The translations under genes were made by a program, and so were the position numbers. From Octopus sinensis (taxonomy: Eukaryota), in NCBI RefSeq assembly GCF_006345805.1, contig NW_021830103.1, positions 1 to 5,274 of the forward strand: a stretch of 5,274 nucleotides of DNA. Reading direction: 5' to 3'. This document shows positions 1 to 5,274 of the stretch, one piece after another. The notes under the pieces were generated by a model, which saw only the letters and a program-made list of their open reading frames with translations, did no database searches and was not told the origin of the DNA. Every line of letters starts with the position of its first letter. The first letter of the stretch is position 1.

Positions 1-378
1 AACAAAAATTGTCGATAACCATTATGATTTATGCGTCTCGAAACAAACCGATAGAAATCTCTAAAAAGTTCGTTATTACCGGATTCTATCACTCTGTGAA
101 CGTTTCTAGTTCGAATCACACTTGTCTCGAGGTGTGCCGAAGATTTTTCTATTTTGGATATATTTGGAGTACTTAAGTCTGCTCAGGACTTGGTGCTTGC
201 TTTTTCCATGGGTATGAGTAAGTATTTCACTTATATCTCGCGTATTTGCCGCTGAAGAAGGGAAAATTTTCTTATGAATTAACCCCGAAATTGGATCGGT
301 AATAACGAATTTTTTAGAGATTTCTATCGGTTTGTTTCGAGACGCATAAATCATAATGGTTATCGACAATTTTTTGTT
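1..378. repeat. Long inverted repeat: arms 1-81 and 297-378 around a 215-bp spacer; left arm probably continues beyond the window edge
   Basis: 1-81 (aacaaaaattgtcgataacc...ttcgttattaccg) is the reverse complement of 297-378 (cggtaataacgaa...ggttatcgacaattttttgtt), apart from one substitution (g68) and a 1-nt indel in the A/T run. Confidence 0.95.
244..310 (+). ncRNA. Degenerate type I hammerhead ribozyme-like motif (HHR-1)
   Basis: CTGAAGA 252-258; stem II ggg 260-262/ccc 283-285 plus aatt/aatt; GAAA 287-290; wobble-rich quasi-palindromic stem III ttgg-a-tcgg 291-299; UH = ta 300-301. Stem I pairs only distally (atttg 244-248/cgaat 306-310). Confidence 0.45.
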
Positions 379-506
379 TCGGCATATTTGGCATTAGAAT
401 TTTTCTTCTGCTCTTATCTTGTAAATTATTTATAAATTTAACCTTTAAAGGCATTTTTTGATATGATGGCCATTGATAAAATTTTTCCCGAAAAAAAATT
501 TATCCT

Positions 507-659
507 ATATTAATTATATATATATTAATATATATATATATATATAATATATATATATATTATATATACATACAATATATATATATATGTAAAATATGTA
601 TATATATATGTATATATATACATACATAAATATATATATATTATATATTATTATAATAA
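507..659. repeat. Imperfect (TA)n microsatellite
   Basis: Long interrupted tatata run. Confidence 0.95.
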
Positions 660-783
660 TGGGCCTGCTCGCTTAGCCAGCGGAGTAGCGTCATTTGGAG
701 GCTAACAAACAATGCGAAGCGCATTGTGACCAGCGATGTGTAGCAACATCTGATAGCCTGGTCGGTCACGGTGATCACGGTGA
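660..783 (+). mobile_element. 5'-truncated 3' end of a SINE/LINE-type retroposon
   Basis: GC-richer island between TA tracts (gggcctgctcgcttagccagc...gcattgtgaccagcgatgtg...) ending in a short tandem tail (gtcacggtgatcacggtgat). Resembles an octopus interspersed-repeat 3' end from memory; not searched. Confidence 0.55.
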
Positions 784-811
784 TATATATATATATATAC
801 ATATATATATA
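784..811. repeat. (TA)n microsatellite
   Basis: atatatat...acatatatatat. Confidence 0.9.
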
Positions 812-1085
812 CGACACCTATACCTCCACGAGGCTCCGGCAGTGGATGGTGGCGGCGAACCCTGCTGTGCTCTTTCACAAAAACTTTCTTCACCCATTTT
901 TCCTGTATTTCAAAAAAAAGGGCCAGCCTTGTCACACTCTGTGTCACGCTGAATCTCCCTCAGAACTATATTAATGGTACACGTATCTGTAGAGTACTCA
1001 GCCACTTGCACGTTAATTTCATGAGCAGGCTGTTCCGTTGATTGGATCAACTGGAACCCACATCGTCGTAACCGATGGAGTGCCA
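812..1085 (+). mobile_element. 5'-truncated SINE body and 3' region (octopus-type)
   Basis: cctgtatttcaaa..gggccagccttgtcacactctgtgtcacgctgaatctcc...gcaggctgttccgttgattggatcaactggaaccc..cgtcgtaaccgatggagtgcca matches my recollection of an abundant octopus SINE 3' half. No tRNA-like head is present in this copy. Confidence 0.6.
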
Positions 1086-1297
1086 TATTTCAACGTTCTT
1101 TACTCCAAACCAGTTTTGGTTTTATAACTCTCGTCGGCTACGAAGACAGAAAAAAGTAAAGACCAATGGACGAATAGTTAAATGGAACTTGAAATATGGC
1201 TTTTAATAAGTCAACGAGATATAAATTATTATTCTTGGTTTGTTGTTGTTCTTCTTTTCTTTATTTTTATTCTTTTCGGTATTGATTCCGTCTGAAA

Positions 1298-1313
1298 TTT
1301 TTTTTTTTTTTTT
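1298..1313. repeat. Poly(T) tract
   Basis: Run of about 16 T. Confidence 0.9.
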
Positions 1314-1383
1314 GTGTACTATAGACATTTGTTAATGTACAAGACAAACCATTCAGCTCTAATATACAAACATTCACACGTGA

Positions 1384-1454
1384 TACACACACACACATAT
1401 ATATATATGTATATATACGCACATACACACGTATACACACAAACATGTATAGAG

Positions 1455-1493
<39 letters not shown>

Positions 1494-1743
1494 ACATATA
1501 CATGTCCACATGGACGTATGCGCATACGTATAAATATGTTGATACACAGAGAGAAAGAGGACACAGACAGACAGGCAGACAAGCAGACAGAAAGATTTAT
1601 ACATACTCACACACCCACTCACACACATGTATGTAAGTGCGAACATCTATACACACATACATATACAAGCATATGTATATGACAGGGATAGAGAGATAGA
1701 GAGGGAGGAGGAGACAGACAGAAAGATTTATATATGCACACAC
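1384..1743. repeat. Compound low-complexity block of (CA)n, (TA)n, (GA)n and (GACA)n
   Basis: Alternating purine-pyrimidine and GACA/GA runs; gacagaaagatttata occurs twice (about 1586 and 1717). Confidence 0.9.
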
Positions 1744-1848
1744 CAACATATTATGAGTATGGAATTCTAAATTGGGCCTGTGTTAGAAAATCGATGGTTT
1801 TTTTATGGAAAATATGGACGGAGGTTTCCATCATTTATCAATTTGACA

Positions 1849-1966
1849 GACAAAAATGCTTATCGACACTTTTTGCTCTTTACGTTCCAAGTCAACTTTG
1901 CTTTTCGTCCTTTCGAGATCGATGAAATAAGTACAAGCTGAACACTGGAATCAACGTAATCGACTA
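1849..1966 (+). mobile_element. Degenerate, internally deleted copy of the same tRNA-derived SINE family as 3203-3420
   Basis: aaatgcttatcgac...tacgttc / gtcaactttgcttttcgtcctttcgagatcgatgaaataagtacaagctgaacactggaatcaacgtaatcgact aligns by eye with the minus-strand SINE (aaatgcttagcag...atgttc...ttttgtctttcatcctttcggggtcgataaattaaataccaattgtgtactggagtcgatctaatcgatt). The B-box segment is missing. Confidence 0.75.
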
Positions 1967-3185
1967 GAGTAATCCCTCACCATGCCTTGGTTCACCTATC
2001 GCGCCTTCAGTACATCGCAATTCACCGATCGCGCACTCAGTATATCGCGGTTCACCTATCGCACACTCAGAACATCGCGGTTCACCCGTCACACATTCAG
2101 AACATCGCGGTTCACCTATCGTGCACTCAGTACATCACGGTTCACCCATCATACACTCAGAACATCGCGGTTTACCTATCGCGCCCTCAGTACAGCGCAG
2201 TTCACCTATTACGCCCCCAAAACATTGCGGTTCACCTATCAGGGTTCACCTATCGCGCCCTCAGAACATCGTGGTTCACCCGTCGCGCATTCAGAACATC
2301 GCGGTTCACCTATCATGAACTCAGTACACCGCAATTCACCCATCACGCCCTCAGTGCATCGCGGTCCACCTATCGTGCCCTCAAAGCATCGCGGTTCACT
2401 TATAACAGTTCACCTATCGCGCACTCAGTACATCACGGTTCACCTGTCACAAACTCGATACATCACGATTCACCTATCACGGTTCACTTATTGCGCACTC
2501 CGAACATTGCGGTTCATCTATCGTGCCCTCAGTAGATCGTGGTTCACCCATTACGCCCTCACTACATTGCGGTTCTCCTATCGCAAACTCAATACATCGT
2601 GATTCACCAATCGCGGTTCACCTATTGCGCACTCAGTACATCGCGGTTCAGCTATTGCGCATTCAGTACATCACGGTTCACCTATCGCGCACTTAGTACA
2701 TTGCGGTTCTCCTATCGCAAACTCAATGCATCGCGGTTCACCTATCACACACTCAGAACATCGCGGTTCACCTATCGCGCCCTCAGTATATCGCGGTTTA
2801 CCTATTGTGCACTCAGAACATCGCAATTCACCCATCGAGCACTCAGTACATCGCAGTTCACCTAGCTCGCTCTCAAAACATCGCGGTTCACTCATCGCGG
2901 TTCACCTATCGCGCACTCTGTACATCGCGGTTCACCTATCGCAAACTCAATACATCGCAGTTCACCAATCGTGCCCTCAGTACATCGCGGTTCACCTATC
3001 GCGCACTCAATACATCATGGATTTTTTGGCTAATATATATAAATTTATATCGCGGTATCCTCTATATAACGCGAGTTCCTGCGGCCGATAGGTATTTAAA
3101 TTTTTTAGATTTTAATTATTTCTGTGGTAAAATAAGCATTTTCACGCCTAAAAAGTAATAAATAAAAATACAGTACTGCACTGTA
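1967..3185 (+). mobile_element. Putative pogo/Tigger-like (Tc1/mariner superfamily) non-autonomous DNA transposon left end, with its subterminal motif expanded into a minisatellite; right TIR not seen
   Basis: TA (1965-66) is followed by gAGTAATCCCTC, resembling the TA|CAGT..CCC(T/C)C starts of Tigger/pogo TIRs. It runs into the array and exits through atcatggatttttt, with another tatcgcgg at 3048-3055. The right boundary is approximate. Confidence 0.5.
1989..3018. repeat. 30-bp minisatellite, consensus GGTTCACCTATCGCGCACTCAGTACATCGC: 32 full units plus five 14-bp half units
   Basis: Full units start at 1989-2199 (8), 2243-2363 (5), 2407 and 2437 (2), 2481-2571 (4), 2615-2855 (9), 2899-2989 (4). 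Half units start at 2229, 2393, 2467, 2601 and 2885. 32x30 + 5x14 = 1030 bp. Confidence 0.98.
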
Positions 3186-3202
3186 TAACACATTAATTAG
3201 AA

Positions 3203-3420
3203 AATATTCATTTCTTCTCTAGACACAAGGCCCGAAATTATGGGGAGGAGGCCAATCGATTAGATCGACTCCAGTACACAATTGGTATTTAATTTATCGA
3301 CCCCGAAAGGATGAAAGACAAAACAGACCTCGGCGGAATTTGAGCTCAGAACATTAATACAGACGAAATACTGCTAAGCATTTGCTCGGCGTGCTAACGT
3401 TTCTGCCAGCTTCGCTGCCT
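3203..3420 (-). mobile_element. Near full-length tRNA-derived SINE with a Meta-domain-like central region (octopus-type)
   Basis: Minus strand: GGCagcgaagc start; A-box-like TGGCAGAAACGTTAG (3408-3394); B-box-like GCTCAAATTCC (3345-3335); central ctttcatcctttcggggtcgataaattaaatacc resembling the MetaSINE core as I recall it; tail ggccttgtgtctagagaagaaatgaatatt. Confidence 0.85.
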
Positions 3421-3421
3421 T

Positions 3422-3478
<57 letters not shown>

Positions 3479-3496
3479 TATAAGTATGTATATATA

Positions 3497-3529
<33 letters not shown>

Positions 3530-3541
3530 GTGTGTGTGTTG

Positions 3542-3573
<32 letters not shown>

Positions 3574-3602
3574 TATATATTTTTATATATATAATATATA
3601 TA
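3422..3602. repeat. Compound (CA)n-(TA)n-(TG)n-(TA)n microsatellite
   Basis: Read directly from the sequence. Confidence 0.97.
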
Positions 3603-3792
3603 TCGCTCGAAGATTGACCGTTTTTTCTAAAGGGCCAATCAAACAAGTCCATTTCTTTTTAAGGTGTAGCGTTTGTAAGAGTCTAGATTGAATTGATATA
3701 TCGGTTCTATTCTAGAAAAAAACTGTCTGATGAACAGCAACGAAAAACTCAGAGTAACAGATTTTGTTGAATTTTCTGCTGCTTAAAAAAAA

Positions 3793-3793
<1 letters not shown>
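3603..3793 (+). mobile_element. Short hammerhead-bearing module between (TA)n tracts (putative PLE pLTR or retrozyme-like fragment)
   Basis: About 190 bp of complex sequence bounded on both sides by (TA)n. Contains a hairpin (tctaga..gaattgat/atcggttc..tctaga, 3682-3715) immediately before HHR-2. Confidence 0.5.
3718..3765 (+). ncRNA. Degenerate minimal type I hammerhead ribozyme (HHR-2)
   Basis: Stem I ctgt 3723-26/acag 3757-60, extended by aaaa/tttt; CTGATGA 3727-33; vestigial stem II; gaaaaa 3742-47 (G12 lost or two extra As); stem III a-ctc-a-gag-t 3747-55; cleavage triplet GTA ending at 3756. Confidence 0.65.
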
Positions 3794-3841
<48 letters not shown>

Positions 3842-3915
3842 AATATATATATATTTTGTATATTATATATGTATATATATATATGTATATATAATATATA
3901 TATATGTATATATAA

Positions 3916-3962
<47 letters not shown>

Positions 3963-4017
3963 TTATGTATATATAATATATATATATATAATATTTATGT
4001 ATATATATATATATATA
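3794..4017. repeat. Long imperfect (TA)n microsatellite
   Basis: About 220 bp of TA repeats with tatg/taa interruptions. Confidence 0.97.
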
Positions 4018-4090
4018 TGGCGGTGCCCCAGCATGGCCACAGCTCATAAGCTGAAACTGGAAAAATCAAAATCAAAAAAAAAATCAAATA
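4018..4090 (+). mobile_element. Extremely 5'-truncated LINE/SINE 3' terminus with stem-loop and A-rich tandem tail
   Basis: tggcggtgccccagcatggccacagctcataagctgaaactgg with hairpin cagct-cata-agctg (4040-4053), followed by an (aaaatc)n tail. This is the usual layout of a retroposon 3' end. Confidence 0.65.
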
Positions 4091-4091
4091 A

Positions 4092-4114
4092 TATATATAT
4101 ATATATATATATAT
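4092..4114. repeat. (TA)n microsatellite
   Basis: Perfect TA run. Confidence 0.95.
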
Positions 4115-4519
4115 ACTTAATCATGTCGAAGTGAAATGGAAATTAATAGAAATTTTTACTTCCAGTAGCCTAGCGTGTAAAAAATTAGTCCAAAGACTAT
4201 GTATTACTCATGAAATTAGGATGTATAAACAAGAGGCATATAATTGATTGCCTCGTGTTTTATGTATTTAATCTAAGGTGTACCTGTTGACGACGATTTC
4301 ACCTAGCGAATATTACTTTATTTGCTAAACTAAAATCAGAAACCAATTGGTCCAGGAAACTAGATGGTAAAAGTTTATTTTTTCATTTCGTTCCTTTTGG
4401 GATTTTATCCCTAATTTTGTGGTTATGGAACCTAGTTGTTCTTTCTAGCGTGATGAATCCCACGAGTGGATTCCTTATGTGTTTAAATGTATACTGTATT
4501 TTATGAGTAATACATAGTC
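4115..4519 (+). mobile_element. About 400-bp hammerhead-bearing module flanked by (TA)n on both sides (putative PLE solo pLTR or retrozyme-like element)
   Basis: Bounded by perfect TA tracts at 4092-4114 and 4520-4541. Contains several hairpins and the near-intact HHR-3. Confidence 0.6.
4271..4365 (+). ncRNA. Near-intact type I hammerhead ribozyme (HHR-3), predicted cleavage after GUC at 4352
   Basis: Stem I cctg 4283-86/cagg 4353-56, with distal atcta 4271-75/tagat 4361-65; core TTGACGA 4287-93 (C3U variant of CUGANGA); stem II gattt 4295-99/aaatc 4333-37 and tagcgaata 4304-12/tatttgcta 4319-27; GAAA 4339-42; palindromic stem III ccaattgg 4343-50; U16.1 = 4351, C17 = 4352. Confidence 0.8.
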
Positions 4520-4541
4520 TATATATATATATATATATATA
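4520..4541. repeat. (TA)n microsatellite
   Basis: Perfect TA run. Confidence 0.95.
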
Positions 4542-4622
4542 AAAGTTGAGTTGTGGGGTATCGCACGAGTGGGATTATATAAGAAAAAAGGTTTGAAAAT
4601 GCAATTTAAACGATGTTTATTT

Positions 4623-4663
4623 ACTTAACCGGTTTCACTCTTTGGTAAAAGATTGTCAAAAGT
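4623..4663 (-). ncRNA. Degenerate minimal type I hammerhead ribozyme (HHR-4)
   Basis: Minus strand reads actt-TTGACAA-t-ctttt-acca-aagag-t-GAAA-ccgg-TT-aagt. Stem I actt/aagt, stem II ctttt/aagag (one G-U pair), palindromic stem III accggt. The core differs from CUGANGA at two positions, both transitions. Confidence 0.6.
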
Positions 4664-4676
4664 TACATTTAAGGAA

Positions 4677-4814
4677 ACATTGAATAATATGGGTTCAAAA
4701 AAAGTTTTTTACATAATTGTCACATTGAATATTATGCATTCAAAAAAGTTTTTACATAATTGTCACATTGGATATTATGAATTCAAAAATGTTTTTTATA
4801 CATATTGTCACATT
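4677..4814. repeat. Three tandem copies of a 43-45-bp unit
   Basis: acattgaatattatg..ttcaaaaa.gttttt.acata.ttgtc at 4677-4721, 4722-4764 and 4765-4809. Confidence 0.9.
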
Positions 4815-5240
4815 ACATGTATAAATATAGTGTTTGGTAACAGAGAAGTTCAATAGTGTGATGAGAATATTTGGGAAAATTGGCAGAAAAGGATAAAAAA
4901 CAAATATATTATTGGGAATTGGTTGCGTTAATTATTGGTTGTCGCAAATTGTCACATTACATGTATATATATACAATCTTCGGTATATATATACAGCCTT
5001 TTGACAGCAAAAATTAAAATGGATTTTTTATACATCTCAGAATATTTTAAGTACAAGGCGAGAATATGTTTTTACTGACCTGTTGGTATTAGCAGAAAGG
5101 CTGAACTGAGAGAACAGAGGAAGTAGCCAATGTGGTGTATACTTCCCCTTTATGCATGAATGATTTTGGGGTTATCAGGAGGTTAGTATGCGGGTGTGAA
5201 TAGATGTGTCCGTGCCCGCTGGTCAGATAGCGTCTGTTTG

Positions 5241-5274
5241 TCACACACATATACACCACACACACACCACACAC
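5241..5274. repeat. Imperfect (CA)n microsatellite running off the window edge
   Basis: cacacacatatacaccacacacacaccacacac. Confidence 0.85.

Follow-up and report, generated by a model that had tools for sequence, protein, structure and literature searches.

What placed four hammerhead ribozyme (HHR) motifs close together, each next to a (TA)n tract, is the question raised by contig NW_021830103.1 of the Octopus sinensis assembly GCF_006345805.1. The window analysed here is the entire contig of 5,274 bp, taken from a genome of 2.72 Gb, and the modules carrying the motifs are designated M1 to M4 (Table 1). A first interpretation made from the letters of the window, called here the sequence-only reading, saw in them one candidate system of non-autonomous modules targeting microsatellites. 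Our results speak for separate insertions into the same target by elements of at least two clades of Penelope-like elements (PLEs), and the window very probably contains the 3' ends of two autonomous PLEs and two non-coding hammerhead units which were likely moved by PLE enzymes.

Minimal hammerheads of PLEs, including a variant with a U3-A8 pair in the core, have been described previously (PMC4209133), and inversions, one-sided tails, a bias for (TA)n, the Hydra clade and a Hydra family of an octopus were reported by Craig et al. (2021, PMC8557442). Non-LTR (long terminal repeat) retrozymes have been proposed to originate from PLEs (Cervera and de la Pena 2020, PMC7229834), an origin also treated in a preprint whose coverage is mainly of vertebrates (Li, Clavereau and Pollet 2026, 10.64898/2026.07.22.740005). 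A curated annotation of O. vulgaris lists 31 recently active Penelope-like families, and the word "hammerhead" does not occur in its main text (PMC13282606). No published titles on octopus retrozymes or on tail length by clade were found, subscription papers, Dfam and Repbase lying outside the search. The arrangement is known in other animals and M1 to M4 are further families of published kinds; modest additions are the pairing of a long with a short end in inverted copies, a family-specific tail, and boundaries that show no clustering at the cleavage site.

Identity of the four modules

Each motif was found where the sequence-only reading had placed it and belongs to a repeat family. The modules had been expected to be multi-copy, and a first look at the genome returned 2619 (M1), 2188 (M2), 2425 (M3) and 1286 (M4) matches, which are candidates of the repeat search and not copy numbers. 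In the sets of loci described below, some pattern-chosen loci overlap, and counts by locus, pair or row include repeats.

Copies of M2 run upstream into an open reading frame (ORF) for a reverse transcriptase (RT) and endonuclease (EN), which ends about 1.0 kb before the module (L126-L130). The encoded protein has RWK and DKT motifs, a CxCX5C linker (intact in L130), CxxC and CxH around E and N, and a GIY-YIG core devoid of cysteines (no CCHH); a Pfam search gave no hit for this ORF, in which DKT, YRDD and the EN core are present and which is interrupted in the fetched copies. Since RWK, DKT, the CxCX5C linker, the missing CCHH, CxxC/CxH and the (TA)n target are the marks published for the Hydra clade (PMC8557442) and all occur in the M2 family, M2 is, judged by motifs against this description, the 3' end of an autonomous PLE of the Hydra clade. 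In its layout the HHR agrees with that of Hydra-2_aMil (PMC8557442, File S2), but it differs from that of Hydra-1_Obim of Octopus bimaculoides (PMC8557442), so that M2 represents another family; the Hydra-1_oBim hammerhead itself gave four matches in the genome versus none for the control. In comparison with the published clade, whose members are "generally <3 kb", the M2 tandem period is 3.4 kb (3,432 bp), and the tail measures 71 nt as against 30-40 bp reported for PLEs (PMC8557442). In a second group of Hydra-type PLEs (L329-L335, L344-L348), the ORFs reach 1,124 aa and include an insert rich in Asn; stem II of the HHRs is very long, and the tail measures about 115 nt.

The M4 family is likewise linked to coding sequence (L121-L124), with element periods of 5,882 and 5,877 bp, and the window copy is 98% identical to both pseudo-LTRs (pLTRs) of the element in L121. 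The ORFs, which are interrupted in the fetched copies, contain an RT domain (PF00078, E 2.9e-8) and a GIY-YIG domain (PF01541, E 8.1e-5), and on this domain evidence M4 is the 3' end of an autonomous PLE encoding both enzymes. The protein motifs are of a Neptune/Nematis type shared by both clades; from the likeness of motifs, the element is probably Neptune-type rather than Nematis-type. In contrast to other PLEs with a C-terminal endonuclease (EN+) of the Neptune (or Nematis) clade, the M4 element is long (5.9 kb). It has an extended N-terminal coding region ahead of the RT (L121:5731-7129; L123:5877-7748, minus strand), in which no Pfam family scored above the cut-off. Three copies of a 43-bp unit (4677-4814) are located in the 3' untranslated region (UTR) of M4, immediately before the HHR; about 250 nt around these repeats are missing, without GT-AG ends, from contigs of three studies, which probably derive from a related subfamily. 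Contigs of four runs that may be of RNA origin span most of the M4 ORF; they show no GT-AG joint and were not taken as a sign of expression. Both M2 and M4 show the marks of EN+ PLEs, namely partial tandems of pLTRs, 5'-truncation, inverted copies and a one-sided tail.

The attribution of the motifs to PLE hammerheads in the sequence-only reading is thus borne out by the linkage of M2 and M4 to RT and GIY-YIG ORFs. Its picture of stand-alone non-coding modules of 200-500 bp, mobilised in trans, applies to M1 and M3, for which a helper would be needed, and not to M2 and M4, which are ends of longer, autonomous coding elements. This linkage refutes, for M2 and M4, the explanation by a single microsatellite-targeting ribozyme system to which all four modules would belong as non-autonomous units. 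All four do carry type I HHRs, (TA)n ends and inverted pairs, and M1 and M3 are non-coding tandems, as such a system would predict, but the families have no significant sequence in common, and of 176 loci (570 kb) no more than 5 contained another of the four families, compared with 4 cross-hits in 400 kb of background. Because of these numbers we conclude that the four families do not travel together, and we give the single system next to no credence.

M1 and M3 are, from their sequence organization, short non-coding hammerhead units which resemble non-LTR retrozymes and were likely moved by Penelope-type enzymes. Sets of 30 pattern-chosen and 29 best-hit loci were inspected for each family, and none contained a contiguous PLE ORF. 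The PLE ORFs near M1 (2/30 loci) and M3 (2/30) were antisense, downstream, or short fragments far upstream. A Neptune ORF directly behind M3 (L036/L131) was considered as a partner and rejected, as it has its own 3' UTR and is separated from M3 by TA. No tRNA gene was found in the seven loci scanned. Tandems occur in 9 of 30 pattern-chosen loci for M1 (period 463-468) as well as for M3 (453-506), two or more HHRs in tandem being present in seven cases for M1 and five for M3, and inverted arms in 17/30 and 15/30 loci, respectively. Units of a single M1 insertion are 0.958 identical versus 0.944 between insertions, a difference that cannot separate circular from linear templates. When one monomer copy of each was folded as linear RNA, z was -3.03 for M1 and -0.21 for M3 relative to shuffles. 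A sister family of M1 (loci L203-L232) is about 77% identical to it and has a period of about 475.

Like non-LTR retrozymes (PMC7229834; 10.64898/2026.07.22.740005), M1 and M3 form non-coding tandem units of low GC content with one type I HHR each, and for both a derivation as non-autonomous PLE relatives has been or can be proposed. Their unit sizes lie within the 51-972 bp given in the preprint (10.64898/2026.07.22.740005) and exceed the circles of 170-400 nt described in PMC7229834, and their HHRs are of the PLE type and not canonical. They further differ in that mostly one or two units are present, together with inversions and marks of PLE insertion. We consider it improbable that M1 and M3 are what remains of the pLTRs of older autonomous PLEs, with coding parts that escaped sampling and tandems that arose by local duplication. 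The 59 loci seen per family leave room for this idea, and a derivation of retrozymes from pLTRs followed by local amplification is advanced in the preprint (10.64898/2026.07.22.740005). However, the sequence upstream of a unit is the 3' end of the preceding unit, and the upstream extension shared among the pattern-chosen loci does not exceed 577 nt for M1 and 534 nt for M3. Moreover, dispersed copies each have their own TA-joined long and short ends, which local duplication would not produce. Regarding the helper proposed for these units, the only M1 or M3 hits among 72 PLE-bearing loci were adjacent M1 or M3 insertions, and a GIY-YIG family search and a second search for Hydra-type RTs yielded further PLE families, none related to M1 or M3. 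Next to a Hydra-type element lies one more tandem HHR unit (L330:6860-7352; about 492 bp, stem II long), which is probably another non-autonomous family.

Hammerhead cores and predicted folds

None of the window copies is canonical. A strict HHR descriptor recovered 0/4 motifs even with two core mismatches allowed, and no hammerhead was among the 50 Rfam matches of the window sequence at E<=10. A relaxed descriptor recovered two of the four (M3 and M4), compared with a mean of 0.033 in shuffles; two hits were reached in 0/300 block shuffles, a significance which is overstated because the descriptor was loosened after the families had been seen. Exact HHR patterns matched the genome 254 times for M1, 142 times for M3 and 224 times for the M1 sister family, the reversed controls giving 0; in these pattern-chosen sets, the pairing of stems I and III results in part from the construction of the pattern. 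A loose genome-wide core pattern (55,207 matches versus 37,143 in the control) is too loose for counting HHRs.

At the family level, copies retain the conserved core (CUGANGA/GAAA/UH or its U3-A8 covariant). The CUGANGA core of the sequence-only reading holds with C3-G8 for M1 (43/43) and M2 (47/47). It does not hold for M4, in which 37/37 other aligned copies have U3-A8, nor for the M3 subfamily nearest to the window copy, which has mostly U3.G8; other M3 subfamilies keep C3, and 32 M3 copies comprised 24 with U.G, four with U-A, two with C-G and two with none. The M1 family motif is CCG CTGAAGA GGGG-loop-CCCC GAAA TTGG-A-CCAA TA CGG, so that the stem III formerly given as ttgg-a-tcgg has to be corrected to TTGG-A-CCAA; the window copy has lost 5 nt in this stem, a loss seen in none of 59 other loci, and its predicted stem III duplex energy is -1.8 kcal/mol compared with -8.9 kcal/mol for a family copy. 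The M2 copy of the window departs from the core by a G12 to A exchange, absent from 29 other loci, and has a broken pair in stem II. Both ribozymes are predicted to be decayed and inactive, and their lesions may reflect either decay or an assembly error. For 25 M3 copies, RNAalifold returned a three-stem fold in which 6 of 17 pairs, each of them in stem II, are changed on both sides, and between M1 and its sister family stems I and III are altered yet still pair.

Predicted energies of stem III range from 0 to -0.9 kcal/mol in the monomer and from -7.4 to -13.0 kcal/mol in the duplex; a stem that is weak as monomer and stable as duplex fits the published dimer model. As in the PLE hammerheads of PMC4209133, stem I is short, stem III is short and palindromic, stem II can have an additional or unpaired base at its foot, dimers are predicted, U3-A8 covariation occurs, and there are many families per genome. 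The families described here differ from those in that the core type tracks the clade and in the U3.G8 core of the M3 subfamily.

Target site, ends and tails

The claim that module ends abut (TA)n holds for all four families. A (TA)4 sequence was found within the family end distance in 36/43 (M1), 29/29 (M2), 21/31 (M3) and 23/23 (M4) copies, compared with 20, 13, 21 and 11% at random positions for the same distances. Each family has two classes of 3' ends, both located at internal TA-like words, with TA junctions at two fixed distances. Outward-facing pairs combine one long and one short end in 14/16 cases for M1, 8/10 for M4, 4/5 for the M1 sister family and 8/12 for M2, four pairs of the latter being unscored. 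Tail length is family-specific: it is about 40 nt in the Neptune-type M4, 70-115 nt in Hydra-type elements (71 nt in M2, about 115 nt in the second group) and 85-120 nt in M1 (about 90 nt) and the M3 subfamilies (95-120 nt). The hammerhead core type tracks the PLE clade as well, with C3-G8 behind 12/12 Hydra-type ORFs and U3-A8 in 14/15 HHR hits with a Neptune-type EN upstream. Because of the long tails and C3-type cores of M1 and M3, we lean slightly towards Hydra-type machinery as their helper. The wider proposal, that M1 and M3 are retrozyme-like units mobilised by proteins of the Hydra clade in particular and that the spacing of TA-primed ends can serve as a fingerprint of the helper in the absence of sequence homology, is put forward tentatively.

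The window M1 inverted arm stops at most 4 nt from the cleavage site, an observation that prompted a test of 5' boundaries. Their clustering at the cleavage site was rejected: boundaries within 4 nt numbered 2/88 for M1 (about one expected if uniform), 1/45 for its sister family, 0/87 for M3, 0/36 for M2 and 0/181 for M4, where the M4 rows are mostly alignment ends in simple repeats and thus uninformative, and the HHR-chosen main copies are biased against ends at the cleavage site. No 3' end with a TA junction was closer than about 30 nt to the site. Ends away from the site imply that the integrated template would run through it uncut or re-ligated; circles and uncut multimers are both compatible with the end data, which do not separate them.

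It is highly improbable that the hammerheads are chance folds or inert passengers and that the TA tracts grew after insertion, as almost every family copy retains the core, the M3 subfamilies show covariation in stem II, stems I and III re-pair in the M1 sister family, the reversed patterns gave no match, and the TA junctions lie at two fixed distances per family. This explanation draws on shuffled DNA, which likewise yields about 6 relaxed-descriptor hits per 400 kb, on the 5' boundaries that are not enriched at the cleavage site, and on the search for an allelic copy or empty site of the window, which found none, its query matching only another repeat.

The repeat families, the link of M2 and M4 to ORFs, the proximity to TA and the unequal ends are observed; for insertion by PLE enzymes, we infer cleavage, dimers, circles, an order of priming and a helper as follows. 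The GIY-YIG endonuclease would nick (TA)n, and the free (TA)n end would pair with a short UA-rich word inside the element RNA. The RT would then copy through the hammerhead, often into the next unit. If priming took place again at another UA-rich word, located upstream at a family-specific distance, the inverted arm carrying the short end would result. The hammerheads are predicted to be actively folded only as dimers, and they would process multimeric RNA by cutting and possibly re-ligating it, instead of setting where the insert ends. Several results weigh against this scheme. Ten of 31 M3 copies have no TA at the expected distance, only 2/7 outward-facing M3 pairs obey the rule of one long and one short end, and a clear downstream HHR call was absent in 4 of 8 further Neptune-type ORF loci. 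No autonomous partner with pLTR homology to M1 or M3 was present among the 72 PLE-bearing loci, which sample few of the families in the genome. In published assays, the activity of PLE HHRs was low (PMC4209133), and cleavage was seen for one of nine retrozyme dimers (10.64898/2026.07.22.740005).

Setting of the window and implications

The window consists mostly of repeats: besides (TA)n tracts it contains a minisatellite with a 30-bp unit, a SINE-like (short interspersed nuclear element-like) repeat and further fragments. TA covers 8.3% of it, a value reached by 5 of 80 background blocks of 5 kb. In 40 evenly spaced background stretches of 10 kb (400 kb in total), the relaxed descriptor gave 18 hits in 17 places compared with 6.1 in shuffles, which suggests that intact PLE-type hammerheads, belonging to many families, number some tens of thousands in the genome. 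The 17 places exceed shuffles by about 11. The Poisson probability of two descriptor-passing motifs within 5.3 kb is 1-2%; four motifs, the decayed ones included, are expected in about 45 to 2,400 windows if the density is assumed to be 17 to 50 per 400 kb. The window is a TA-rich spot in the upper tail and not a unit.

Table 1 Modules, hammerhead motifs and TA tracts in the 5,274-bp window
Positions	Strand	Feature	Remark
4..81	-	M1 inverted arm, copy of 297-374, cut by contig start	99% complementary to 297-374
82..512	+	M1, 5'-truncated copy of a non-coding unit of ~468 bp, ending at the long 3' end	91-94% to top genome hits
248..299	+	M1 type I hammerhead, C3-G8 core, predicted inactive	stem III minus 5 nt
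513..648	n/a	(TA)n tract, M1 3' end	
3446..3603	n/a	TA/TG tract, M2 5' truncation point	
3604..3793	+	M2, last 190 bp, short-end form, 5'-truncated, of PLE assigned as autonomous and Hydra-clade	96% to top hits
3723..3760	+	M2 hammerhead, Hydra type, 2-bp stem II, stem III with 1-nt loop, predicted inactive	
3794..4018	n/a	(TA)n tract, M2 3' end	
4091..4115	n/a	(TA)n tract, M3 long end	
4116..4216	-	M3 inverted arm with long 3' end	reverse match to downstream part of unit
4213..4519	+	M3 direct arm, short-end form of a non-coding unit of ~480 bp	89-95% in most top hits
4283..4356	+	M3 hammerhead, U3.G8 core, long stem II with covariation, palindromic stem III	passes relaxed descriptor
4520..4541	n/a	(TA)11 tract common to M3 short end and M4 long end	
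4542..5274	-	M4, 3' UTR/pLTR of young 5.9-kb PLE assigned as autonomous and Neptune-type, cut by contig end	
4623..4663	-	M4 hammerhead, U3-A8 core, 4-nt palindromic stem III, as in family	passes relaxed descriptor

Between M1 and M2, the GC-rich minisatellite (1989-3016, about 1 kb) is built of a 30-bp unit with 14-bp half units and has no match in the 400 kb of background. The SINE-like repeat (3205-3420) is very abundant (59 hits per 400 kb) and is presumably an octopus tRNA-derived SINE. Fragments of dispersed repeats at 661-780, 818-1090, 1880-1970 and 4019-4090 had 3, 14, 11 and 4 hits per 400 kb, respectively.

The role of PLE hammerheads has been called unclear (PMC8557442), and PLEs have been proposed as the source of the enzyme that moves animal retrozymes (PMC7229834); the results on ends, boundaries and tails bear on these two points. 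With young M2 and M4 families and abundant M1 and M3 units, one genome offers matched material for both questions. If the fingerprint reading is true, it would, together with the lack of boundaries at the cleavage site, provide genomic evidence from an invertebrate that the templates of PLE enzymes are circles or uncut multimers of hammerhead RNA, primed at two internal sites.

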